64,000 bases of DNA from Escherichia coli. Its GTDB lineage: Bacteria; Pseudomonadota; Gammaproteobacteria; Enterobacterales; Enterobacteriaceae. Location: the NCBI RefSeq assembly GCF_003334355.1, contig NZ_QOWP01000005.1. One strand, 5' to 3'. Positions 4,809 to 60,523 of this stretch are shown here, piece after piece. The first letter of the stretch is position 1, and every line of letters begins with the position of its first letter. The translations under genes and the position numbers were made by a program. The notes under the pieces are model-generated. The model worked only from the letters and a program-made list of their open reading frames with translations. It searched no databases and was not told the origin of the DNA.

Positions 4809-5003
4809 TTACTCTGCTCCATTCCGTGCTGGCTGCGCTTGCGGCCAGCATACCTCACTTCTCGTGATCAAGATCACATTCTCGCTTTCCCCTGCGACAC
4901 GGGTGTCGAATCCATTTTTTGCTGAACGTTAATGACCATCATTTTTGTACCGTTCAGAATCCAGTCAATACATAACTTATTGAATATATTGAGTTAATCA
5001 GAA

Positions 5004-5019
5004 TGGCATCCTTTATGCA
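5004..5019 (+). promoter_or_regulatory. Sigma-54 (-24/-12) promoter of the hyf operon
   Basis: tggcatcctttatgca matches TGGCAC-N5-TTGCA with conserved GG and GC, about 40 bp upstream of hyfA; the operon also encodes the sigma-54 enhancer-binding protein HyfR. Confidence 0.6.
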
Positions 5020-5060
5020 ATATGAAATGCAATGTTTCATATCATTTTCAAGGAGCCGAC

Positions 5061-5678
5061 ATGAACCGCTTTGTGGTGGCCGAACCACTGTGGTGTACAG
5101 GATGTAATACCTGTCTCGCTGCCTGTTCGGACGTGCATAAAACGCAAGGTTTACAGCAACACCCGCGCCTGGCCCTGGCGAAGACGTCAACAATCACTGC
5201 CCCTGTCGTGTGTCATCACTGTGAGGAAGCCCCTTGCCTGCAGGTCTGCCCGGTCAATGCCATCTCTCAGAGGGATGATGCGATCCAACTCAACGAAAGC
5301 CTCTGTATTGGCTGCAAGCTTTGCGCCGTGGTCTGCCCATTTGGCGCAATCAGCGCTTCAGGAAGCCGTCCGGTGAATGCCCATGCGCAATATGTTTTTC
5401 AGGCTGAAGGCTCACTCAAAAACGGCGAAGAAAACGTGCTGCCCCAACATGCGTTGCTGCGCTGGGAACCGGGTGTCCAGACCGTCGCGGTGAAATGCGA
5501 CCTGTGTGATTTCTTGCCAGAAGGTCCGGCCTGCGTTCGCGCTTGCCCGAATCAGGCGTTACGGCTGATCACCGACGATAGCCTGCAACGTCAGATGAAA
5601 GAAAAACAGCGCCTTGCCGCAAGCTGGTTTGCCAATGGCGGGGAGGATCCCCTTTCCCTCACTCAGGAGCAACGCTAA
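5061..5678 (+). CDS. hyfA: Hydrogenase-4 component A, 4Fe-4S ferredoxin-type subunit
   Basis: ORF 5022..5678; start at MNRFVVAEPLWCTGCNTCLAAC gives 205 aa; several CxxCxxCxxxCP iron-sulfur motifs. Confidence 0.93.
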   Translation: MNRFVVAEPLWCTGCNTCLAACSDVHKTQGLQQHPRLALAKTSTITAPVVCHHCEEAPCLQVCPVNAISQRDDAIQLNESLCIGCKLCAVVCPFGAISASGSRPVNAHAQYVFQAEGSLKNGEENVLPQHALLRWEPGVQTVAVKCDLCDFLPEGPACVRACPNQALRLITDDSLQRQMKEKQRLAASWFANGGEDPLSLTQEQR

Positions 5679-7696
5679 TGGATGCCCTGCAATTATTAAC
5701 CTGGTCGCTGATCCTCTATCTGTTTGCCAGTCTGGCTTCGCTGTTTTTACTCGGTCTGGACAGACTGGCTATTAAGCTTTCCGGCATCACATCGCTGGTG
5801 GGCGGCGTGATTGGCATCATCAGCGGAATTACGCAATTACATGCTGGTGTAACTTTAGTCGCCCATTTTGCCACCCCTTTTGACTTTGCCGATTTAACCC
5901 TGCGAATGGATAGCCTCTCGGCATTTATGGTGCTGGTTATCTCCTTGCTGGTGGTGGTTTGTTCGCTCTATTCATTGACTTATATGCGCGAATACGAGGG
6001 CAAAGGCGCGGCGGCGATGGGCTTCTTTATGAATCTTTTCATCGCATCGATGGTTGCCCTGCTGGTGATGGACAACGCTTTTTGGTTCATCGTGCTGTTT
6101 GAAATGATGTCGCTGTCTTCCTGGTTTCTGGTCATTGCCAGGCAGGATAAAACGTCGATCAACGCTGGCATGCTCTACTTTTTTATCGCCCACGCCGGAT
6201 CGGTGCTGATAATGATCGCCTTCTTGCTGATGGGGCGCGAAAGCGGCAGCCTCGATTTTGCCAGTTTCCGCACGCTTTCACTTTCTCCGGGGCTGGCGTC
6301 GGCGGTGTTCCTGCTGGCCTTTTTCGGTTTTGGCGCGAAAGCCGGGATGATGCCGTTGCACAGCTGGTTGCCGCGCGCTCACCCTGCCGCACCATCGCAC
6401 GCTTCAGCGTTGATGTCTGGCGTAATGGTCAAAATCGGTATTTTCGGCATCCTGAAAGTGGCGATGGATCTGCTGGCGCAAACGGGTTTGCCGCTGTGGT
6501 GGGGCATTCTGGTGATGGCGATCGGCGCAATCTCCGCGCTCCTGGGCGTGCTGTATGCGCTGGCGGAACAGGATATCAAACGGCTACTGGCCTGGAGTAC
6601 CGTCGAAAACGTCGGCATTATTTTGCTGGCGGTCGGTGTGGCGATGGTCGGTCTGTCACTGCACGACCCGCTGCTCACCGTGGTTGGACTGCTCGGCGCA
6701 CTGTTTCATCTGCTCAACCATGCGCTGTTCAAAGGGCTGCTATTTCTCGGCGCGGGCGCGATTATTTCGCGTTTGCATACCCACGACATGGAAAAAATGG
6801 GGGCACTGGCGAAACGGATGCCGTGGACAGCCGCAGCATGCCTGATTGGTTGCCTGGCGATATCAGCCCTTCCTCCGCTGAATGGTTTTATCAGCGAATG
6901 GTACACCTGGCAGTCGCTGTTCTCACTAAGTCGTGTGGAAGCCGTAGCGCTACAACTTGCGGGTCCTATTGCTATGGTAATGCTGGCAGTCACTGGTGGG
7001 CTGGCAGTAATGTGCTTCGTAAAAATGTACGGTATTACTTTCTGTGGTGCGCCGCGCAGTACACACGCTGAAGAGGCACAGGAAGTGCCAAATACGATGA
7101 TCGTCGCCATGCTACTGCTCGCGGCACTCTGCGTATTAATTGCGCTTAGTGCCAGTTGGCTGGCACCGAAGATAATGCATATTGCCCATGCGTTTACCGA
7201 TACCCCTCCCGTCACTGTCGCCAGCGGAATAGCACTTGTACCCGGCACGTTTCATACACGGGTCACTCCTTCATTACTGTTGCTGTTACTACTGGCGATG
7301 CCTTTGCTGCCTGGCCTTTACTGGCTGTGGTGTCGTTCGCGCCGCGCAGCGTTTCGTCGCACAGGAGATGCCTGGGCATGCGGCTACAGCTGGGAAAATG
7401 CGATGGCCCCGTCAGGCAATGGCGTGATGCAGCCGCTGCGTGTGGTCTTTTCTGCGCTATTTCGTCTACGACAACAGCTCGACCCTACGCTGAGGCTAAA
7501 TAAAGGTCTTGCGCACGTCACCGCCAGGGCTCAGAGCACAGAACCCTTCTGGGATGAGCGGGTGATCCGCCCCATCGTGAGCGCCACCCAACGGCTGGCC
7601 AAAGAAATACAGCATCTGCAAAGCGGCGACTTTCGTCTCTATTGCCTGTATGTGGTCGCCGCACTGGTTGTGCTGCTAATCGCTATTGCCGTCTAA
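5678..7696 (+). CDS. hyfB: Hydrogenase-4 component B, NuoL/HycC-like membrane antiporter subunit
   Basis: 672-aa polytopic membrane ORF (MDALQLLTWSLILYLFASL...); its ATG overlaps the hyfA stop. Confidence 0.93.
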   Translation: MDALQLLTWSLILYLFASLASLFLLGLDRLAIKLSGITSLVGGVIGIISGITQLHAGVTLVAHFATPFDFADLTLRMDSLSAFMVLVISLLVVVCSLYSLTYMREYEGKGAAAMGFFMNLFIASMVALLVMDNAFWFIVLFEMMSLSSWFLVIARQDKTSINAGMLYFFIAHAGSVLIMIAFLLMGRESGSLDFASFRTLSLSPGLASAVFLLAFFGFGAKAGMMPLHSWLPRAHPAAPSHASALMSGVMVKIGIFGILKVAMDLLAQTGLPLWWGILVMAIGAISALLGVLYALAEQDIKRLLAWSTVENVGIILLAVGVAMVGLSLHDPLLTVVGLLGALFHLLNHALFKGLLFLGAGAIISRLHTHDMEKMGALAKRMPWTAAACLIGCLAISALPPLNGFISEWYTWQSLFSLSRVEAVALQLAGPIAMVMLAVTGGLAVMCFVKMYGITFCGAPRSTHAEEAQEVPNTMIVAMLLLAALCVLIALSASWLAPKIMHIAHAFTDTPPVTVASGIALVPGTFHTRVTPSLLLLLLLAMPLLPGLYWLWCRSRRAAFRRTGDAWACGYSWENAMAPSGNGVMQPLRVVFSALFRLRQQLDPTLRLNKGLAHVTARAQSTEPFWDERVIRPIVSATQRLAKEIQHLQSGDFRLYCLYVVAALVVLLIAIAV

Positions 7697-7706
7697 GGAA
7701 ATCACC

Positions 7707-8653
7707 ATGAGACAAACTCTTTGCGACGGATATCTGGTCATTTTTGCGTTAGCACAGGCCGTGATTCTGCTGATGCTAACCCCACTTTTTACGGGTATTT
7801 CCCGGCAGATACGCGCGCGTATGCACTCCCGCCGCGGGCCGGAGATCTGGCAGGATTATCGCGATATCCACAAACTGTTTAAACGCCAGGAAGTTGCGCC
7901 TATATCTTCAGGTCTGATGTTCCGCCTGATGCCGTGGGTATTAATCAGCAGCATGCTGGTGCTGGCGATGGCCCTACCACTATTTATTACCGTTTCCCTT
8001 TTGCGGGCGGCGGCGATCTGATCACCCTTATCTATCTTCTTGCCCTGTTTCGTTTTTTCTTTGCTCTTTCAGGGCTGGATACCGGAAGCCCGTTTGCGGG
8101 AGTCGGTGCCAGTCGCGAGTTGACGCTCGGCATTCTGGTCGAACCCATGCTCATTCTCTCACTGCTGGTATTGGCGCTGATAGCGGATTCCACGCATATC
8201 GAGATGATCAGCAATACGCTGGCGATGGGCTGGAACTCGCCGCTAACCACCGTACTGGCGTTACTGGCCTGTGGTTTTGCCTGCTTCATAGAGATGGGAA
8301 AAATTCCCTTTGATGTTGCTGAAGCAGAACAGGAATTACAGGAAGGCCCGCTGACCGAATATTCCGGTGCCGGGCTGGCGTTGGCGAAATGGGGACTGGG
8401 GCTGAAACAGGTCGTGATGGCAGCACTGTTTGTGGCCCTGTTTCTGCCCTTTGGGCGCGCGCAAGAACTTTCTCTCACCTGCCTGCTGACTTCACTTGTC
8501 GTTACGCTGCTCAAGGTTTTGCTGATTTTTGTACTGGCTTCAATCGCAGAAAACACGCTGGCACGCGGGCGTTTTTTACTCATTCACCATGTGACCTGGC
8601 TTGGCTTCAGCCTTGCTGCGCTTGCATGGGTCTTCTGGTTAACCGGTCTGTAA
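7707..8653 (+). pseudogene. hyfC: Hydrogenase-4 component C (HycD/NuoH-like membrane subunit), reading frame interrupted
   Basis: N-terminal part MRQTLCDGYLVIFALAQ... (frame of 7707) ends at TGA 8019-8021; the rest (...FPFAGGGDLITLIYLL...WVFWLTGL*) is open only in the -1 frame (track ORF 7934..8653). The span is 947 nt, one base short of an intact 316-codon gene; the break sits at the ccc/tttt run 7996-8002. Confidence 0.85.
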
Positions 8654-8669
8654 GGAGCACTGACGGAAT

Positions 8670-10108
8670 ATGGAAAATCTTGCTCTGACGACGTTAATGC
8701 TGCCTTTTATCGGCGCACTGGTCGTTTCGTTTTCGCCACAACGTCGGGCCGCCGAATGGGGGTTTTGTTCGCCGCACTGACCACGCTGTGCATGTTGTCG
8801 CTGATCTCCGCGTTTTATCAGGCCGATAAAGTTGCCGTCACGTTGACGTTGGTCAACGTGGGGGATGTGGCATTGTTTGGCCTGGTCATTGATCGCGTGA
8901 GTACGCTGATTCTGTTTGTGGTGGTGTTTCTCGGTTTGCTGGTCACGATCTACTCCACGGGTTATCTGACGGATAAAAATCGCGAACACCCGCATAACGG
9001 CACGAATCGTTATTACGCATTTTTGCTGGTGTTTATCGGCGCGATGGCGGGACTGGTACTCTCCTCGACGCTGCTCGGTCAGTTGTTGTTTTTTGAAATT
9101 ACGGGCGGCTGCTCCTGGGCGTTGATCAGTTATTACCAGAGCGATAAAGCGCAGCGTTCAGCACTAAAAGCGTTACTTATCACTCATATCGGCTCGTTGG
9201 GGTTGTATCTTGCCGCCGCCACGCTGTTTTTGCAGACCGGAACGTTTGCGCTTAGCGCGATGAGCGAGTTACACGGCGACGCACGTTATCTGGTTTATGG
9301 CGGCATCCTGTTTGCCGCGTGGGGGAAATCGGCCCAGCTACCGATGCAAGCGTGGCTACCGGACGCAATGGAAGCGCCAACACCGATCAGCGCCTATCTC
9401 CACGCCGCATCGATGGTGAAAGTGGGCGTTTACATTTTTGCCCGCGCCATTATCGACGGCGGCAATATCCCGCATGTGATTGGCGGCGTTGGCATGGTCA
9501 TGGCCCTGGTCACCATTCTTTATGGATTTCTGATGTATTTACCACAGCAGGATATGAAGCGGTTGCTGGCCTGGTCGACCATCACTCAACTTGGCTGGAT
9601 GTTCTTCGGCTTGTCGCTCTCCATCTTCGGCTCGCGGCTGGCGCTGGAGGGTAGCATCGCCTACATCGTCAACCACGCGTTCGCTAAAAGCCTGTTTTTC
9701 CTTGTAGCAGGTGCGCTGAGTTACAGCTGCGGCACGCGCTTGTTGCCGCGTCTGCGTGGCGTATTGCACACCCTGCCGTTGCCTGGCGTGGGTTTCTGCG
9801 TGGCAGCGCTGGCAATTACCGGCGTGCCGCCGTTCAACGGCTTCTTCAGTAAATTCCCGCTGTTTGCTGCCGGTTTTGCGTTGTCAGTGGAGTACTGGAT
9901 CCTGCTGCCCGCCATGATTCTGCTGATGATTGAATCGGTCGCCAGTTTCGCCTGGTTTATTCGCTGGTTTGGTCGCGTCGTGCCTGGCAAACCGAGCGAG
10001 GCCGTCGCCGATGCCGCACCGCTGCCAGGGTCAATGCGCCTGGTGTTGATTGTACTGATTGTGATGTCGCTGATTTCCAGCGTAATCGCCGCGACCTGGT
10101 TGCAGTAA
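8670..10108 (+). pseudogene. hyfD: Hydrogenase-4 component D (NuoM/N-like membrane subunit), reading frame interrupted
   Basis: An SD (aggag) plus ATG at 8670 encodes MENLALTTLMLPFIGALVVSFSPQRRAAEW... and stops at TGA 8778-8780; the main body (GVLFAALTTLCMLS...ATWLQ*) continues in the -1 frame to 10108 (track ORF 8756..10108). The span is 1439 nt, one base short of an intact 480-codon gene; the break is at the G5 run 8758-8762. Confidence 0.85.
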
Positions 10109-10119
10109 GGAGATGATGA

Positions 10120-10770
10120 ATGACCGGTTCTATGATCGTAAATAATCTGGCGGGACTGATGATGCTGACATCACTGTTTGTGATTAGCGTCAAAAGCTAT
10201 CGCCTGTCATGCGGATTTTACGCCTGCCAGTCACTGGTGCTGGTGTCTATTTTCGCCACCCTCTCGTGCCTGTTCGCCGCAGAGCAACTGCTGATCTGGT
10301 CCGCCAGCGCCTTTATCACCAAAGTGCTGCTGGTACCGTTAATCATGACTTACGCTGCACGAAATATTCCCCAGAACATCCCGGAAAAAGCGTTATTCGG
10401 TCCGGCAATGATGGCACTGCTCGCGGCGTTAATTGTCCTGCTTTGCGCATTTGTCGTTCAGCCCGTGAAGCTACCGATGGCTACCGGGCTGAAACCGGCG
10501 CTGGCGGTAGCGTTAGGTCATTTTCTGCTTGGCCTGCTGTGCATTGTCAGCCAGCGCAATATCCTGCGGCAAATTTTTGGTTACTGCCTGATGGAAAACG
10601 GCTCCCATCTGGTGCTGGCGCTTCTTGCCTGGCGAGCACCGGAACTGGTGGAAATAGGTATCGCTACCGACGCCATCTTCGCCGTCATTGTGATGGTGTT
10701 ACTGGCAAGAAAAATATGGCGTACCCACGGCACGCTGGACGTGAACAACTTGACCGCGCTGAAGGGATAA
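10120..10770 (+). CDS. hyfE: Hydrogenase-4 component E (small integral membrane subunit)
   Basis: 216-aa hydrophobic [27 protein letters not shown]... Confidence 0.92.
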
Positions 10771-10774
10771 TGAG

Positions 10775-12355
10775 ATGAGTTATTCTGTGATGTTCGCTTT
10801 ACTCCTGCTCACGCCGCTGCTTTTTTCGCTGCTCTGTTTTGCCTGCCGGAAACGGAGACTTTCTGCGACTCGCACGGTGACCGTATTACATAGCTTAGGG
10901 ATCACACTGCTGCTGATTCTGGCACTCTGGGTGGTCCAAACTGCCGCTGATGCAGGAGAAATATTCGCTGCGGGACTGTGGCTTCATATTGATGGTCTGG
11001 GCGGTTTGTTCCTCGCCATTCTTGGTGTGATTGGCTTTCTCACCGGTATTTACTCGATTGGCTACATGCGTCATGAAGTGGCACACGGCGAGCTTTCACC
11101 CGTTACGCTGTGCGATTACTACGGTTTCTTCCATCTGTTTTTGTTCACCATGCTGCTGGTTGTTACCAGCAATAACCTGATTGTGATGTGGGCGGCGATC
11201 GAAGCCACCACCTTAAGCTCGGCGTTTCTGGTAGGCATTTACGGTCAGCGTTCATCGCTGGAAGCTGCATGGAAGTACATCATTATTTGTACTGTTGGTG
11301 TCGCTTTTGGTCTGTTCGGTACCGTGCTGGTATACGCCAACGCCGCCAGCGTTATGCCGCAGGCAGAAATGGCGATATTCTGGAGCGAGGTTCTTAAGCA
11401 ATCGTCCTTGCTTGACCCAACATTAATGCTGTTGGCCTTTGTGTTTTTGCTAATTGGCTTTGGTACCAAAACCGGGCTATTTCCCATGCACGCCTGGCTG
11501 CCGGATGCTCACAGTGAAGCGCCGAGTCCGGTCAGCGCCCTGCTCTCCGCCGTATTGCTGAACTGCGCGCTGTTGGTGCTGATTCGCTATTACATCATTA
11601 TTTGCCAAGCCATCGGCAGCGATTTCCCCAACCGGTTGTTGCTCATCTTCGGCATGTTGTCGGTTGCCGTGGCGGCATTTTTCATTCTGGTACAGCGGGA
11701 CATTAAGCGTCTGCTGGCGTACTCCAGCGTGGAGAACATGGGGCTGGTCGCGGTGGCGCTAGGCATTGGCGGGCCGCTGGGAATTTTTGCCGCGCTGCTG
11801 CACATCTTAAACCACAGTCTGGCAAAAACGCTGCTGTTCTGCGGTTCCGGCAATGTACTGCTCAAGTACGGCACGCGCGATCTCAACGTCGTCTGTGGGA
11901 TGCTCAAAATCATGCCATTTACCGCCGTGCTGTTTGGCGGCGGTGCGCTGGCGCTGGCAGGGATGCCGCCCTTCAACATTTTTCTTAGCGAATTTATGAC
12001 CATTACCGCCGGACTGGCACGTAATCACCTGCTGATTATCGTCCTGCTGTTATTGCTGTTAACGCTGGTGCTGGCGGGCCTGGTACGGATGGCAGCGCGG
12101 GTGTTAATGGCGAAACCGCCGCAGGCCGTTAACCGGGGTGATCTCGGCTGGTTGACCACCTCGCCAATGGTGATTCTGCTGGTCATGATGCTGGCGATGG
12201 GAACGCATATTCCACAACCTGTCATCAGGATCCTGGCGGGCGCTTCCACTATAGTCCTCTCAGGGACGCACGACCTGCCTGCACAACGTAGCACCTGGCA
12301 TGATTTTTTGCCTTCAGGCACCGCATCTGTTTCGGAGAAACACAGTGAACGTTAA
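10775..12355 (+). CDS. hyfF: Hydrogenase-4 component F (NuoL/M/N-family membrane subunit)
   Basis: 526-aa polytopic membrane ORF ([20 protein letters not shown]...). Confidence 0.92.
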
Positions 12356-14060
12356 TTCATCGTCAAATCGTGGCGAAGCGATTCTCGCCGCCCTGAAAAC
12401 GCAGTTCCCCGGCGCGGTGCTGGATGAAGAGCGACAAACGCCTGAACAGGTCACCATTACGGTGAAAATCAATCTGCTGCCTGACGTTGTACATTATCTT
12501 TATTATCAACATGATGGCTGGCTTCCGGTCCTGTTTGGCAACGACGAGCGGACACTTAACGGTCATTACGCGGTTTATTATGCCCTTTCTATGGAAGGGG
12601 CCGAAAAATGCTGGATCGTAGTGAAGGCACTGGTCGATGCCGACAGTCGGGAGTTTCCGTCAGTCACACCGCGCGTCCCTGCCGCGGTCTGGGGCGAGCG
12701 AGAAATTCGCGATATGTACGGGCTGATTCCGGTTGGCCTGCCGGATCAGCGTCGCCTGGTGTTGCCCGATGACTGGCCGGAAGATATGCATCCGCTGCGC
12801 AAAGATGCGATGGATTATCGACTGCGCCCTGAACCGACGACTGATTCCGAAACGTATCCGTTTATCAATGAGGGCAACAGCGATGCGCAGGTGATCCCTG
12901 TCGGCCCGCTGCATATCACCTCCGATGAACCGGGTCACTTCCGCTTGTTTGTGGATGGCGAGCAAATTGTCGATGCTGATTACCGCCTGTTTTATGTCCA
13001 TCGCGGCATGGAGAAACTGGCAGAAACGCGGATGGGCTACAACGAAGTGACCTTCTTATCAGACCGCGTGTGTGGGATTTGCGGTTTTGCCCACAGTGTG
13101 GCCTATACCAACTCGGTTGAAAATGCACTGGGGATTGAGGTGCCGCAACGAGCGCATACCATTCGCTCGATTCTGCTGGAAGTCGAACGGCTACACAGTC
13201 ATTTGCTCAACCTTGGCCTCTCCTGCCATTTTGTTGGTTTTGATACCGGCTTTATGCAATTTTTCCGCGTGCGGGAAAAGTCGATGACGATGGCGGAATT
13301 GCTGACCGGGTCGCGTAAAACCTACGGTCTGAATCTGATTGGTGGTGTTCGCCGCGATATTCTCAAAGAGCAACGTCTGCAAACGCTGAAACTGGTGCGC
13401 GAGATGCGCGCCGACGTGTCGGAGCTGGTAGAGATGCTGCTTGCTACGCCGAATATGGAACAACGCACTCAGGGCATTGGCATTCTCGACCGACAAATCG
13501 CCCGTGATTATAGCCCTGTAGGGCCGCTGATCCGCGGCAGTGGTTTTGCCCGTGATTTGCGCTTTGATCACCCCTACGCCGACTACGGCAATATTCCAAA
13601 AACACTGTTTACCTTCACCGGCGGCGATGTTTTCTCCCGCGTGATGGTCCGTGTCAAAGAGACGTTTGATTCGCTGGCAATGCTGGAATTTGCCCTCGAC
13701 AACATGCCGGATACCCCGCTGCTGACCGAAGGCTTTAGCTATAAACCTCACGCATTCGCGCTGGGCTTTGTTGAAGCGCCACGCGGTGAAGACGTGCACT
13801 GGAGCATGCTCGGTGATAACCAAAAATTGTTCCGCTGGCGCTGTCGTGCCGCCACCTACGCCAACTGGCCAGTGCTGCGTTACATGCTACGCGGCAATAC
13901 CGTTTCTGACGCACCGCTGATTATCGGTAGCCTTGATCCCTGCTACTCCTGTACCGACCGTGTGACGCTGGTAGATGTGCGCAAGCGCCAGTCAAAAACC
14001 GTGCCGTATAAAGAGATCGAACGCTACGGCATTGATCGTAACCGTTCGCCGCTGAAGTAA
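12345..14060 (+). CDS. hyfG: Hydrogenase-4 [NiFe] large catalytic subunit
   Basis: Track ORF 12300..14060; most plausible start is GTG 12345 ((M)[17 protein letters not shown]...), overlapping the hyfF end. NiFe-binding motifs [11 protein letters not shown] (N-terminal) and DPCYSCTDR (C-terminal). Exact start uncertain. Confidence 0.9.
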
Positions 14061-14069
14061 GGACAGAAG

Positions 14070-14615
14070 ATGCTGAAGTTACTGAAAACTATTATGCGCG
14101 CCGGAACCGCGACGGTGAAATATCCCTTCGCGCCACTGGAGGTCAGCCCAGGCTTTCGCGGGAAACCGGACCTGATGCCCAGCCAATGTATTGCCTGCGG
14201 TGCCTGCGCCTGTGCTTGTCCGGCAAATGCGCTGACTATCCAGACCGACGACCAGCAAAATTCGCGCACCTGGCAGCTCTATCTGGGGCGTTGTATTTAC
14301 TGCGGACGTTGTGAAGAAGTGTGCCCGACCAGAGCCATCCAGCTTACCAATAACTTTGAACTGACCGTCACCAATAAAGCCGATCTCTATACCCGCGCGA
14401 CGTTCCATCTACAACGTTGCAGCCGTTGCGAACGCCCGTTTGCCCCGCAAAAAACCGTCGCACTGGCTGCTGAATTGTTGGCACAGCAACAAAATGCGCC
14501 ACAAAACCGCGAAATGTTGCGGGCGCAAGCGAGCGTCTGCCCGGAGTGCAAACAACGCGCGACGCTGATCAACGACGATACAGATGTACCGCTGGTGGCT
14601 AAGGAGCAGCTATGA
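14070..14615 (+). CDS. hyfH: Hydrogenase-4 component H, 2x[4Fe-4S] ferredoxin-like subunit
   Basis: 181-aa ORF with two CxxCxxCxxxCP motifs ([24 protein letters not shown]). Confidence 0.93.
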
Positions 14616-15370
14616 GTCCAGTGCTTACACAACATGTCAGCCAGCCCATCACGCTGGATGAGCAAACGCAAAAGATGAAGCGGCATTTGCTACAGGATAT
14701 CCGTCGCTCGGCTTACGTTTATCGCGTCGATTGCGGCGGCTGCAACGCCTGTGAAATCGAAATTTTTGCCGCCATCACACCCGTATTCGACGCAGAACGT
14801 TTTGGCATTAAGGTTGTTTCATCACCGCGTCACGCCGATATTTTGTTATTTACTGGCGCAGTCACCCGGGCGATGCGTATGCCTGCACTTCGGGCGTATG
14901 AGTCTGCCCCCGATCATAAAATTTGTGTTTCCTACGGCGCGTGCGGTGTCGGCGGCGGTATTTTCCACGATCTCTACAGCGTCTGGGGCGGTAGCGACAC
15001 CATTGTCCCCATTGATGTTTGGATCCCCGGCAGCCCGCCAACACCGGCCGCCACCATTCACGGTTTCGCCGTGGCGCTCGGTTTGCTGCAACGGAAGATT
15101 CACGCGGTGGATTATCGCGATCCCACCGGGGTGACTATGCAACCGTTGTGGCCGCAGATCCCGCCATCACAGCGTATCGCCATTGAGCGAGAAGCGCGGC
15201 GGCTGGCGGGCTATCGTCAGGGGCGAGAAATTTGCGATCGGCTCCTGCGCCATTTAAGCGACGATCCTACAGGAAATCGGGTTAACACCTGGTTGCGCGA
15301 TGCCGACGATCCACGTCTCAATAGTATCGTTCAGCAACTCTTTCGCGTACTCCGGGGGTTACATGACTGA
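14612..15370 (+). CDS. hyfI: Hydrogenase-4 small subunit (NuoB-like)
   Basis: 252-aa ORF; [10 protein letters not shown] cluster-binding region; start overlaps the hyfH stop (ATGA). Confidence 0.93.
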
Positions 15371-15776
15371 AGAGTGCGGGGAAATTGTTTTCTGGACGCT
15401 GCGAAAAAAGTTTGTCGCCAGTAGCGACGAGATGCCGGAACACAGCTCTCAGGTAATGTATTACTCGCTGGCTATCGGTCATCACGTTGGCGTGATTGAT
15501 TGTCTGAATGTCGCCTTCCCCTGCCCACTGACGGAATACGAAGATTGGCTTGCACTGGTCGAAGAGGAGCAAGCCCGACGTAAGATGCTGGGGGTGATGA
15601 CTTTTGGTGAGATTGTTATTGACGCCAGCCACACCGCCTTGTTGACCCGGGCATTCGCGCCACTGGCGGATGACGCGACGTCTGTGTGGCAGGCGCGTAG
15701 CATTCAATTCATTCATCTGTTGGATGAAATTGTGCAGGAACCGGCCATCTATCTGATGGCCAGAAAAATTACGTGA
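15363..15776 (+). CDS. hyfJ: Hydrogenase-4 component J (HycH-like maturation factor)
   Basis: Track ORF 15300..15776; start at internal Met ([23 protein letters not shown]...) gives 137 aa, overlapping the hyfI 3' end. Confidence 0.9.
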
Positions 15777-15805
15777 GAAGGATTTCTCATTAATAAGGAC
15801 TGTTG

Positions 15806-17818
15806 ATGGCTATGTCAGACGAGGCGATGTTTGCCCCGCCGCAAGGAATAACAATTGAAGCGGTAAACGGAATGCTCGCGGAGCGGTTAGCGCAGAAACA
15901 CGGTAAGGCGTCTTTATTACGCGCCTTCATCCCGCTGCCGCCGCCGTTCAGCCCGGTACAACTTATTGAACTGCATGTTCTCAAAAGCAACTTCTATTAC
16001 CGCTACCATGATGATGGCAGCGATGTGACGGCAACAACAGAGTATCAGGGCGAGATGGTCGATTATTCGCGTCACGCCGTCCTTCTCGGCAGTAGTGGAA
16101 TGGCGGAGCTACGCTTTATTCGCACCCACGGCAGTCGTTTTACTCCCCAGGATTGCACACTGTTTAACTGGCTGGCGCGGATAATCACCCCGGTTCTGCA
16201 ATCATGGCTCAATGATGAAGAACAGCAGGTGGCGCTGCGTTTGCTGGAGAAAGATCGCGATCATCATCGGGTACTGGTTGATATTACTAATGCAGTGCTG
16301 TCACATCTTGATCTCGACGATCTGATCGCTGACGTCGCTCGTGAGATCCATCATTTTTTCGGTCTGGCTTCAGTCAGTATGGTACTGGGCGATCATCGAA
16401 AGAACGAGAAGTTTAGCCTGTGGTGCAGCGATCTTTCTGCCTCACATTGTGCGTGTCTGCCACGCAATATGCCTGGCGACAGTGTATTGCTGACACAAAC
16501 GCTACAAACCCGACAACCGACCTTGACGCACCGTGCAGACGATCTGTTTCTCTGGCAACGCGACCCGTTATTACTCTTACTTGCATCTAACGGCTGCGAA
16601 TCTGCGCTCCTTATACCGCTTACCTTTGGCAACCATACACCGGGTGCATTGTTGCTGGCGCATACCTCTTCCACTCTCTTTAGTGAGGAAAACTGCCAGC
16701 TACTACAACACATAGCCGATCGCATCGCTATTGCCGTTGGCAATGCCGATGCCTGGCGTAGCATGACCGATTTGCAGGAAAGTTTGCAGCAAGAAAACCA
16801 CCAGCTTAGCGAGCAGCTCCTTTCGAATCTGGGCGTCGGTGACATTATCTATCAAAGCCAGGCAATGGAAGACCTGCTCCAGCAGGTAGATATTGTGGCG
16901 AAGAGCGACAGTACAGTGTTGATTTGTGGTGAAACCGGAACCGGCAAAGAGGTGATCGCCAGAGCGATCCATCAACTTAGCCCGCGACACGACAAGCCGC
17001 TGGTCAAAATCAACTGCGCTGCCATCCCCGCCAGTCTTCTGGAAAGTGAGTTATTCGGTCATGACAAAGGGGCGTTTACTGGTGCGATTAATACCCATCG
17101 TGGTCGTTTTGAAATTGCCGATGGCGGCACGTTGTTTCTCGATGAAATTGGCGATCTGCCGTTAGAACTTCAGCCTAAACTGCTGCGCGTATTGCAGGAA
17201 CGGGAGATTGAGCGTCTCGGCGGGAGTAGAACGATCCCGGTGAATGTCAGAGTCATTGCCGCCACCAACCGTGATTTGTGGCAAATGGTTGAAGATCGCC
17301 AGTTTCGCAGCGATCTCTTTTATCGCCTGAATGTCTTCCCACTGGAATTGCCGCCGCTACGCGACCGTCCGGAAGATATCCCTCTTTTAGCAAAGCATTT
17401 CACGCAAAAAATGGCGCGCCATATGAATCGTTCAATTGACGCCATCCCGACCGAGGCGCTACGCCAGTTGATGTCGTGGGACTGGCCGGGCAACGTGCGC
17501 GAGCTGGAAAACGTGATTGAGCGAGCGGTACTGCTGACTCGCGGTAACAGTCTGAATTTACATCTTAATGTCCGACAAAGCCGTTTACTGCCGACGCTAA
17601 ATGAAGATTCAGCGCTTCGCAGTTCAATGGCGCAGTTGCTGCACCCGACGACGCCAGAGAATGACGAAGAAGAACGTCAGCGCATTGTTCAGGTATTGCG
17701 AGAAACCAATGGCATTGTTGCCGGGCCCCGTGGCGCGGCGACACGATTAGGGATGAAGCGCACCACGCTGCTGTCACGAATGCAGCGTCTGGGGATCTCG
17801 GTTCGCGAGGTGTTGTAA
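15806..17818 (+). CDS. hyfR: Sigma-54-dependent transcriptional activator of the hyf operon (FhlA paralog)
   Basis: 670 aa from MAMSDEAMF...; AAA+ sigma-54 interaction domain with Walker A GETGTGKE and the GAFTGA motif ([15 protein letters not shown]); C-terminal HTH. Confidence 0.93.
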
Positions 17819-17839
17819 TCTGCTTTTGCAGGAGTATGC

Positions 17840-18688
17840 ATGAGCAACAAACTCTCTTTCGACTTGCAGTTGAGCGCCAGAAAAGCGGCAATCGCTGAAC
17901 GGATTGCCGCCCATAAAATTGCCCGCAGTAAAGTGTCGGTCTTTTTAATGGCGATGTCCGCTGGCGTGTTTATGGCGATCGGATTTACTTTTTACCTTTC
18001 CGTTATCGCCGATGCCCCGTCTTCACAGGCATTAACCCATCTGGTGGGCGGCCTTTGCTTTACACTCGGCTTTATTTTGCTGGCGGTTTGCGGCACCAGC
18101 CTGTTCACCTCGTCGGTAATGACGGTGATGGCAAAAAGTCGGGGCGTTATTAGTTGGCGAACTTGGCTGATTAACGCACTTCTGGTGGCCTGCGGTAATC
18201 TGGCAGGTATTGCCTGTTTCAGTTTGTTAATCTGGTTTTCCGGGCTGGTGATGAGTGAAAACGCGATGTGGGGAGTCGCGGTTTTACACTGCGCCGAGGG
18301 CAAAATGCATCATACATTTACTGAATCTGTCAGCCTCGGCATTATGTGCAATCTGATGGTTTGCCTGGCGCTTTGGATGAGTTATTGCGGGCGTTCGTTA
18401 TGCGACAAAATCGTCGCCATGATTTTGCCCATCACCCTGTTTGTCGCCAGTGGCTTTGAGCACTGTATCGCCAATTTGTTTGTGATTCCGTTCGCCATTG
18501 CCATTCGCCATTTCGCCCCTCCCCCCTTCTGGCAACTGGCGCACAGTAGCGCAGACAATTTTCCGGCACTGACGGTAAGCCATTTTATTACCGCCAATCT
18601 GCTCCCGGTGATGCTGGGTAATATTATCGGCGGTGCAGTGCTGGTGAGTATGTGTTATCGGGCTATTTATTTACGTCAGGAATCCTGA
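17840..18688 (+). CDS. focB: Formate channel FocB (formate/nitrite transporter family)
   Basis: 282-aa membrane ORF (MSNKLSFDLQLSARKAAIAER...), last gene of the hyf cluster. Confidence 0.9.
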   Translation: MSNKLSFDLQLSARKAAIAERIAAHKIARSKVSVFLMAMSAGVFMAIGFTFYLSVIADAPSSQALTHLVGGLCFTLGFILLAVCGTSLFTSSVMTVMAKSRGVISWRTWLINALLVACGNLAGIACFSLLIWFSGLVMSENAMWGVAVLHCAEGKMHHTFTESVSLGIMCNLMVCLALWMSYCGRSLCDKIVAMILPITLFVASGFEHCIANLFVIPFAIAIRHFAPPPFWQLAHSSADNFPALTVSHFITANLLPVMLGNIIGGAVLVSMCYRAIYLRQES

Positions 18689-26778: not shown

Positions 26779-26793
26779 TGCCCCGTAGTTAAA

Positions 26794-57246: not shown

Positions 57247-57262
57247 GTATTTTACAGGCAAT

Positions 57263-57292
57263 AAAAAACCGCCGAATTTGGCGGTTTTTTAT
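57263..57292 (+). terminator. Intrinsic terminator after sseA
   Basis: aaaaaa-ccgcc-gaatttg-ggcgg-tttttt (A-run, hairpin, T-run). Confidence 0.7.
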
Positions 57293-57590
57293 TGCTAGTC
57301 TGGTTCGCGGCCTTTCCAGCAGGTTGACTTGTGTTACATGAGCAACGCAGGTGCTTCACAGCAAAACAATACTCACCAGTAACTCTCTTTTTGTCAAGCA
57401 AAAGAGAGTAATTATTGTTTATTTAGCGTATTATCGACACCGGCCCTTTCCGCCGTGTTCGGTAATAAAATAACCTGGCTTATTAGTCCGAATTCAGACA
57501 AATATAAACAAATCCTGCTCAAAATTAAAAATTCTAACCGGTAAAAGATATTACTTAAACATGTAAATTCACTTTCCTTTAAAAAACAAA
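57287..57590 (+). ncRNA. ryfA: RyfA-like small RNA region (copy 1 of a tandemly duplicated unit)
   Basis: About 300 nt bounded by two intrinsic terminators, no ORF over 20 codons with a credible start; contains the 10-bp perfect inverted repeat actctctttt/aaaagagagt. A RyfA sRNA is described between sseA and sseB in E. coli. Boundaries approximate; strand inferred. Confidence 0.4.
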
Positions 57591-57618
57591 AAACCGCCAA
57601 AATCAGGCGGTTTTTTGT
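57585..57618 (+). terminator. Intrinsic terminator between the two repeat copies
   Basis: aaaaaacaaaaaa-ccgcc-aaaatca-ggcgg-tttttt. Confidence 0.7.
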
Positions 57619-57620
57619 TG

Positions 57621-57790
57621 CTGGTCCGGTTCGCGGCCTTTCCAGCAGGTTGTATTACCGTAGTAATGCAAGCGCGTCTCAGCGGAGACAATACTCGCCA
57701 GTAACTCTCTTTTTGTCAAGCAAAAGAGAGTTATTATTGTTCTGTTAGTGTATTATCCACTGCGGCCCTTTCCGCCGTCTCGCAAACGGG
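57621..57790 (+). repeat. Second copy of the RyfA-like unit (direct repeat of 57296-57465, period about 325 bp)
   Basis: Shared blocks ggttcgcggcctttccagcaggtt, caatactc[a/g]ccagtaactctctttttgtcaagcaaaagagagt[a/t]attattgtt and cggccctttccgccgt in the same order and spacing as copy 1, with diverged stretches in between. Confidence 0.7.
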
Positions 57791-60283: not shown

Positions 60284-60312
60284 TTTAACAGCAAAACGGG
60301 CTACCCCAGGCA
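60284..60312 (-). terminator. Probable intrinsic terminator after iscX (end of the isc operon)
   Basis: Minus-strand hairpin aaacgggctgcc-tgg-ggtagcccgttt followed by a short T-rich tract, between iscX and pepB. Confidence 0.5.
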
Positions 60313-60322
60313 GCCCGTTTAT

Positions 60323-60523
60323 TCATTCGGCCTCGTCCAGCCAGACTAACAAAATCGCTTCGAGGATTTTCTCGTTGGATGCCTGCGGGTCGTCGTCGAA
60401 ATCTTCCAGATCGCAAATCCACTGATGCATATCGGTGAATCGAACCGTTTTCGGATCAAGATCGGGATACGCATCGTACAGTGCTTCGCCAATTTCGCGG
60501 CTATCGGTCCACTTAAGTCCCAT
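60323..60523 (-). CDS. iscX: Fe-S cluster assembly protein IscX
   Basis: 66-aa acidic [48 protein letters not shown]... Confidence 0.93.

Follow-up and report, generated by a model that had tools for sequence, protein, structure and literature searches.

The window, i.e., the whole 64-kb stretch of DNA that was analysed, covers the bcp-hyfABCDEFGHIJR-focB region of Escherichia coli. It is collinear with the genome of strain K-12 MG1655; its first 60,284 bases, in which the operon is located, are 99.15% identical to that genome. The hyfABCDEFGHIJR-focB operon (5061–18688, + strand) was delineated using the open reading frames, the annotation of strain PSS-12 (offset +4899) and the K-12 gene order. 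Ten of its genes are open in the window, all on the + strand: hyfA (5061–5678), hyfB (5678–7696), hyfE (10120–10770), hyfF (10775–12355), hyfG (12345–14060), hyfH (14070–14615), hyfI (14612–15370), hyfJ (15363–15776), hyfR (15806–17818) and focB (17840–18688). The two remaining genes, hyfC and hyfD, are frame-broken. The position of hyfD within this operon, between bcp and yfgO, was confirmed by the collinearity with K-12 and by the annotation of PSS-12. HyfD is an antiporter-like membrane subunit of hydrogenase-4 (Hyd-4), also called formate hydrogenlyase-2.

The former coding region of hyfD spans positions 8670–10108 on the + strand (1439 nt, one base short of 480 codons) and is preceded by the Shine-Dalgarno sequence AGGAG (8653–8657, +), which overlaps the hyfC stop codon TAA (8651–8653) and has a calculated anti-Shine-Dalgarno duplex energy of -8.4 kcal/mol. 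The initiating frame runs from the ATG at 8670–8672 through 36 codons to a premature TGA at 8778–8780 (+). This residual 5′ ORF (8670–8780, +) encodes the first transmembrane helix in 30 native residues, MENLALTTLMLPFIGALVVSFSPQRRAAEW, followed by the six aberrant, out-of-frame residues GFCSPH. The remaining 449 codons, (M)GVLFAALTTL...ATWLQ*, are in the -1 frame and end at 10108; together with an ATG at 8756 that was put in frame by the deletion they form a body ORF of 450 codons (8756–10108, +). Alignment to K-12 MG1655 placed the lesion at a run of five G (hereafter G5; 8758–8762, +), one G short of the ancestral run of six (G6) that is present in K-12, O157:H7 and IAI39; strain F1053 has four (G4). 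Two substitutions in the vicinity are relevant to the population analysis below, namely a synonymous A (K-12: G) at position 8776 (+), 14 bases downstream of the G run, and an A (K-12: T) at position 8697 (+), which results in the replacement L10M.

After one G was restored, hyfD encoded a protein of 479 amino acids plus stop, in which L10M was the sole change from K-12 HyfD, although the two genes differ by approximately 19 nucleotide substitutions. The repaired protein matched the NCBIfam model NF005097 ("hydrogenase 4 subunit D") with 810 bits (cutoff 430) and from end to end, i.e., residues 1–479 on profile positions 1–480. The two frames are therefore two halves of one known gene and no chance pattern. 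Since the frame is broken at 8758–8762 and stops at 8778, so that no single uninterrupted ORF for a HyfD of about 479 residues was found, hyfD of the window is, judged from its sequence, a pseudogene of the HyfD equivalog and not a functional member of the family. The sequence-only reading had called the gene hyfD, and the K-12 alignment, the NF005097 score and the operon position all bear this out. Its coordinates for AGGAG, the ATG at 8670, the TGA at 8778–8780, the G5 run at 8758–8762, the 1439-nt span and the end at 10108 were all correct, and exactly one G is missing, compared to K-12, in the run where it had located the switch of frame.

The second frame-broken gene, hyfC (7707–8653, +; 947 nt), has a run of three C (C3) at positions 7996–7998, where K-12 has four, and is called "frameshifted" by the RefSeq annotation pipeline PGAP. 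Full alignment of the 64-kb window to K-12 revealed seven indels, four of which are intergenic and three genic (the frameshifts in hyfC and hyfD and an in-frame 48-bp difference in hyfG), and no frame-breaking indel outside hyfC and hyfD. The window contains 235 homopolymer runs of at least five bases, 72 of at least six and five of at least eight. None of the five longest runs differs from K-12, and there is no frame-breaking difference among the 72 runs of at least six bases.

Some further differences from K-12 were recorded along the window. The small intergenic indels are at positions 26785, 33548, 34859 and 39744 (1, 1, 2, and 1 bp, respectively), and one of them shortens a C5 homopolymer to C4 just downstream of purN. 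At 60285–60324, in the gap between pepB and iscX, the 40-bp sequence TTAACAGCAAAACGGGCTACCCCAGGCAGCCCGTTTATTC with a GC-rich palindrome replaces about 160 bp of K-12, which is probably a presence/absence difference of a repetitive extragenic element. Two paralogous segments, each approximately 195 bp long (57260–57456 and 57585–57778), are located downstream of sseA in the timR/ryfA small-RNA and toxin region; each also matches the K-12 counterpart of the other at 82% identity. The hyf region itself (window positions 5000–14100) is a recombination mosaic: from hyfB to hyfF the window has the haplotype of ATCC 8739 and BL21, but from approximately position 12,480 on, in hyfG, it follows WCHEC050613 and Z503, with which it also has in common the retained 48 bp described below.

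The distribution of the hyfD alleles was determined among 5,426 complete E. coli genomes using short queries able to seed on one allele only. The genome collection is biased, with many BL21 derivatives and outbreak clones, and the counts given here are hence counts of genomes and not of independent lineages. G5 was present in 1,103 of the 5,426 genomes, about a fifth, including BL21, ATCC 8739 and O103:H2 12009, and G6 in 2,854; exact 78- or 79-mers were found in 984 (G5) and 2,791 (G6) genomes. About two thirds of the hyf-carrying genomes have the plain G6 ORF. The operon is missing altogether from approximately 1,130 complete genomes (~21%), which fits the absence of hyfABCDEFGHIJ from group B2 strains listed in Table 5 of Touchon et al. 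(2009; PMC2617782). Numerous genomes sequenced independently of one another, among them BL21 and its derivatives C41/C43, E. coli C, ATCC 8739 and isolates from pigs, dogs, water, and humans, are 100% identical to the window across the 701 nt that surround the site. Over 15 kb of the operon, four further genomes are about 100% identical, and no complete genome is closer across these 15 kb than PSS-12. RefSeq/PGAP calls hyfD "frameshifted" in every G5 genome whose annotation was inspected; in BL21, ATCC 8739 and PSS-12 both hyfC and hyfD are so called. The hyfD G5 allele is thus already known as a RefSeq-annotated frameshifted pseudogene in the identical sequence of other carriers.

G5 is almost perfectly linked to the A at position 8776: only one of the 1,103 G5 genomes has 8776G, and only five of the 2,854 G6 genomes have 8776A. 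In an alignment of 15 strains, all ten G5 or G4 strains had both 8697A and 8776A, and upstream of approximately position 8630 these strains were of two haplotypes, a "B/C/ATCC 8739" type and an "O103:H2" type. The 8697A variant was present on all sampled G5 haplotypes except that of strain E686, and additionally in one G6 strain (WCHEC050613). Because of the near-complete linkage with 8776A, which marks the haplotype on which the deletion arose, the G5 allele would go back to a single ancestral slippage event, and the pattern as a whole indicates one old deletion that was later moved to different backgrounds by descent and recombination. The same lesion was accordingly found, with shared linked variants, in independent assemblies, as expected of an inherited pseudogene.

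Four of the six exceptions to the linkage were inspected individually, as was, separately, the G4 strain F1053. In E686, G5 is located in a divergent, otherwise intact operon and is either an independent slip or an assembly error. Two strains, O178:H19 2012C-4431 and SZQ1, have G6 on the lesion haplotype and have kept later hyfD lesions (the 208-bp deletion and the 1-bp deletion at 9102 described below); their G6 runs are apparent back-slips in an already dead gene. The fourth, 2017.17.01CC, has a K-12-like G6 gene with 8776A. The G run is thus mildly prone to slippage in both directions, at a level well under 1% of carriers. Recurrent independent slippage from G6 to G5 as the source of the 1,103 carriers was rejected, with E686 as the one clear independent case.

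For the hyfC lesion, a query joining both lesion-specific segments matched 1,109 records in 1,409 places. Combined with the count of 1,103 G5 genomes, this gave about 306 genomes with the C3 allele of hyfC, about 300 of which also carry G5, and about 800 genomes with the hyfD lesion and no hyfC lesion. Six genomes were seeded by the hyfC half of the query alone, and the one inspected has G4 in hyfD. Since nearly all C3 genomes also carry G5, the hyfC lesion is nested inside the hyfD-lesion group, and the sequences suggest that the break in hyfC came after that in hyfD, in a lineage to which E. coli B, E. coli C, ATCC 8739 and the window belong.

None of the G5 strains sampled from the shared haplotype was free of additional inactivating changes in hyf; each had one or more, as is likewise expected of an inherited pseudogene. 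Within hyfD of G5 relatives these are a 1-bp deletion at 9102, a 208-bp deletion at 9426–9633 and, in BL21, an additional in-frame nonsense codon in the body that is present neither in the window nor in ATCC 8739; the annotated end of BL21 hyfD is 3 nt earlier than that of the window. Elsewhere in the operon, G5 relatives have a frameshift or an internal stop in hyfB, an internal stop in hyfF, and frameshifts in hyfH and hyfI. The later lesion of the window's own lineage is the 1-bp deletion in hyfC. Damage was also found in G6 strains: A27 has a frameshift in hyfB, and in WCHEC050613 an IS421 element is inserted between hyfA and hyfB, hyfB is frameshifted, hyfD has lost 216 bp and hyfF contains a stop. 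In O157:H7 PV15-279 and IAI39 all hyf genes are open. Compared to O157:H7, hyfD of the window has about 2 nonsynonymous and 13 synonymous differences, counts too small for a convincing signal of relaxed selection. Published work agrees that the hyf system is dispensable or inactive in E. coli. Poor native expression of E. coli hyf has been noted and the operon called silent (work cited in PMC7384014), replacement of the K-12 promoter, even by strong promoters, yielded no Hyd-4 H2 (PMC7654741), and H2 production by Pectobacterium atrosepticum was normal after deletion of hyfDEF (Finney et al., 2019; PMC7384014).

A separate observation concerns hyfG. The 48 bp at window positions 13504–13551 are flanked by the 10-bp direct repeat GCCCGTGATT; a tandem-repeat search found no tandem repeat at this indel. 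They are kept in the window, O157:H7 and IAI39, and are missing in K-12 MG1655, BL21 and ATCC 8739. Among the hyf-carrying complete genomes, 2,180 have the 48 bp and 2,113 do not. The 16 residues they encode align without gaps to RDFSNVGPMVRASGHA of the solved HycE subunit (7z0s_E). Because residues that are absent from K-12 align in this way to HycE, the 555-residue HyfG of K-12 is an in-frame deletion variant of a 571-residue catalytic subunit. The deletion may contribute to the inactivity of Hyd-4 in K-12, and the lack of 16 conserved residues could be part of the reason why Hyd-4 of K-12 has not been activated. It is not mentioned in the paper on the failed activation of K-12 Hyd-4, and a limited literature search, which does not prove that it is unpublished, found no published description of it.

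We regard it as very probable that the G5 allele of hyfD is real, was inherited vertically and abolishes the function of the gene, in an operon that is dispensable and decaying. This interpretation builds on direct observations, i.e., the lesion and its presence in about 1,100 genomes, the single haplotype, the nested hyfC lesion and the secondary lesions of relatives. Replication slippage in the G6 homopolymer would have removed one G, presumably in an ancestor of many E. coli of phylogroups A and B1, as assigned by strain name. Ribosomes that start at ATG 8670 would yield a 36-residue peptide and halt at TGA 8778. The remaining 449 hyfD codons would be left untranslated or poorly translated and HyfD would not be made, and transcriptional polarity along this untranslated part of the message (1.3 kb) may lower the expression of hyfE to focB. 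The allele would have persisted and spread under relaxed selection, with hyf being dispensable in these lineages, and because of this dispensability later lesions, here the 1-bp deletion in hyfC, would have accumulated on top of it. A counterpoint is that the hyfD body is still an open frame of 450 codons with an in-frame ATG exactly at the lesion, and that the differences from O157:H7 include only about 2 nonsynonymous compared to 13 synonymous ones, so that a little translation or function might have been left.

This counterpoint leads to the alternative that the allele is not null and that the body is still expressed by -1 ribosomal slippage on G_GGG, by transcriptional slippage, or by reinitiation at ATG 8756. 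A -1 shift after the GGG at 8760–8762 would read GTT TTG TTC and give the exact wild-type peptide. However, GGGUUUU at the lesion is in the wrong register for a -1 frameshift; the zero frame reads UGG GGG UUU UGU, in which the A-site UUU would have to re-pair with GUU, and no in-register X_XXY_YYZ heptamer is present. The downstream RNA (8766–8860) is no more stable than shuffled sequences (minimum free energy -24.9 compared to a shuffle mean of -26.5 kcal/mol, z = +0.5). Nor is the frameshift conserved: 2,854 genomes have a contiguous G6 ORF, and O157:H7, IAI39 and K-12 are intact. A programmed -1 frameshift was therefore rejected, as there is no in-register heptamer, no downstream structure and no conservation among orthologues. 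Transcriptional slippage is disfavoured by the length of the run, five G being too short for efficient slippage of RNA polymerase.

The ATG at 8756 opens the body frame, which is free of stops in the window, 22 nt upstream of the new stop codon. It lacks a Shine-Dalgarno sequence (anti-Shine-Dalgarno duplex -2.5 kcal/mol compared to the -8.4 kcal/mol of the native start), which speaks against an internal restart with a Shine-Dalgarno sequence of its own and leaves termination-reinitiation alone. Reinitiation would produce a 450-residue HyfD without its first helix, in addition to the 36-residue helix peptide. If true, it would keep the mRNA translated and shield hyfE to focB from Rho-dependent polarity, and it could explain how the allele reached about 20% of the sequenced genomes before other lesions appeared. 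Against a functional body, G5 relatives have destroyed it further by the 1-bp deletion, the 208-bp deletion and the BL21 nonsense codon, and hyfC is broken in the window as well. We consider reinitiation, and residual function of the allele by any of the three routes, very unlikely.

A homopolymer error in sequencing or assembly, with a true genome that has G6 and an intact hyfD, is a still less credible alternative to inherited loss of function. In its favour, the lesion is in a homopolymer and a second homopolymer lesion is located 765 bp upstream, and some exceptions to the haplotype linkage (G5 in the divergent operon of E686, and G6 in two strains of the lesion haplotype) could be polishing errors. 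However, the same G5 run was found in 1,103 complete genomes, which come from many laboratories, and in all but one of them on the 8776A haplotype; one carrier, O103:H2 12009, was Sanger-sequenced. The hyfC lesion is likewise common to its approximately 306 genomes. A systematic homopolymer error would strike longer runs first, and the runs of at least eight bases are unchanged, as is the reading frame at all 72 runs of at least six; more than half of the indels across the 64 kb are intergenic. The artefact was rejected based on the population counts, the haplotype linkage and the indel scan of the whole window. The sequence-only reading had suggested a systematic sequencing artefact and proposed that similar frame breaks be sought at other homopolymers. 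None was found in the window compared to K-12, hyfC and hyfD being the only frame-broken genes in 64 kb with 235 runs of at least five bases, and the suggestion is unsupported. It had argued that an artefact becomes likelier with two lesions within 1 kb; the nesting points the opposite way and identifies the two as historical events, hyfD and then hyfC. Its other proposal, decay of a cryptic operon, agrees with the number of G5 genomes, the shared haplotype, the pseudogene annotation and the further hyf lesions.

The weakest alternative, a reversible on/off switching of hyf with the G tract as contingency locus, could draw on the variation in tract length (G6, G5, and G4 in F1053), on the two G6 genomes that resemble back-slippage and on the independent G5 of E686, but it was rejected as next to impossible, given that known phase-variable tracts are far longer than five to six bases, that tract length is not independent of haplotype (about 6 exceptions, four of them inspected individually, in about 3,957 genomes, i.e., very rare change) and that the apparent revertants are in genes already dead from other lesions.

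Regarded as inherited loss of function, the finding itself is an ordinary, already annotated pseudogene of little importance. The allele frequency, the single origin and the nesting with hyfC are routine population-genetic facts, for which a limited literature search found no paper. No published account of the hyfC and hyfD frameshifts in B strains was found either, in a search that was limited and does not prove them unpublished. The case nevertheless shows that a frame break in a homopolymer need not be an artefact. With hyfC and hyfD broken, E. coli B strains, E. coli C, ATCC 8739 and many A/B1 isolates are predicted to be unable to make hydrogenase-4. For work on formate hydrogenlyase-2 the wider picture may be of more use: O157:H7 and IAI39 have an intact operon, most A/B1 strains sampled have differing lesions in it, and strains with a fully intact operon would be better models.

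Among known systems, one of the closest is hyfD of K-12 MG1655 (b2484), which has the same locus, gene order and flanks, approximately 98.7% nucleotide identity and, after repair, a protein that differs only at residue 10; it has a continuous ORF of 479 codons with G6, whereas the G5 frame of the window stops after 36 codons. The genes annotated as "hyfD, frameshifted" in BL21, ATCC 8739 and PSS-12 represent the same allele, with identical sequence over the 701 nt and the same hyfC frameshift, but BL21 and ATCC 8739 lack the 48 bp of hyfG kept in the window and BL21 has its additional hyfD nonsense codon. The HyfDEF proteins of P. atrosepticum (PMC7384014) include the orthologous antiporter-like subunit, and the tolerated deletion fits a tolerated loss of hyfD. 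Formate hydrogenlyase-2 of P. atrosepticum is, however, intact and active, whereas the lesion of the window is natural and is accompanied by a broken hyfC, which encodes the anchor subunit (a HycD homolog). NuoL/NuoM/NuoN and MrpA/MrpD belong to the same superfamily by profile (NuoL, NF005141: 261 bits over residues 2–476), but these matches are below the family cutoffs and the protein belongs to the HyfD equivalog.
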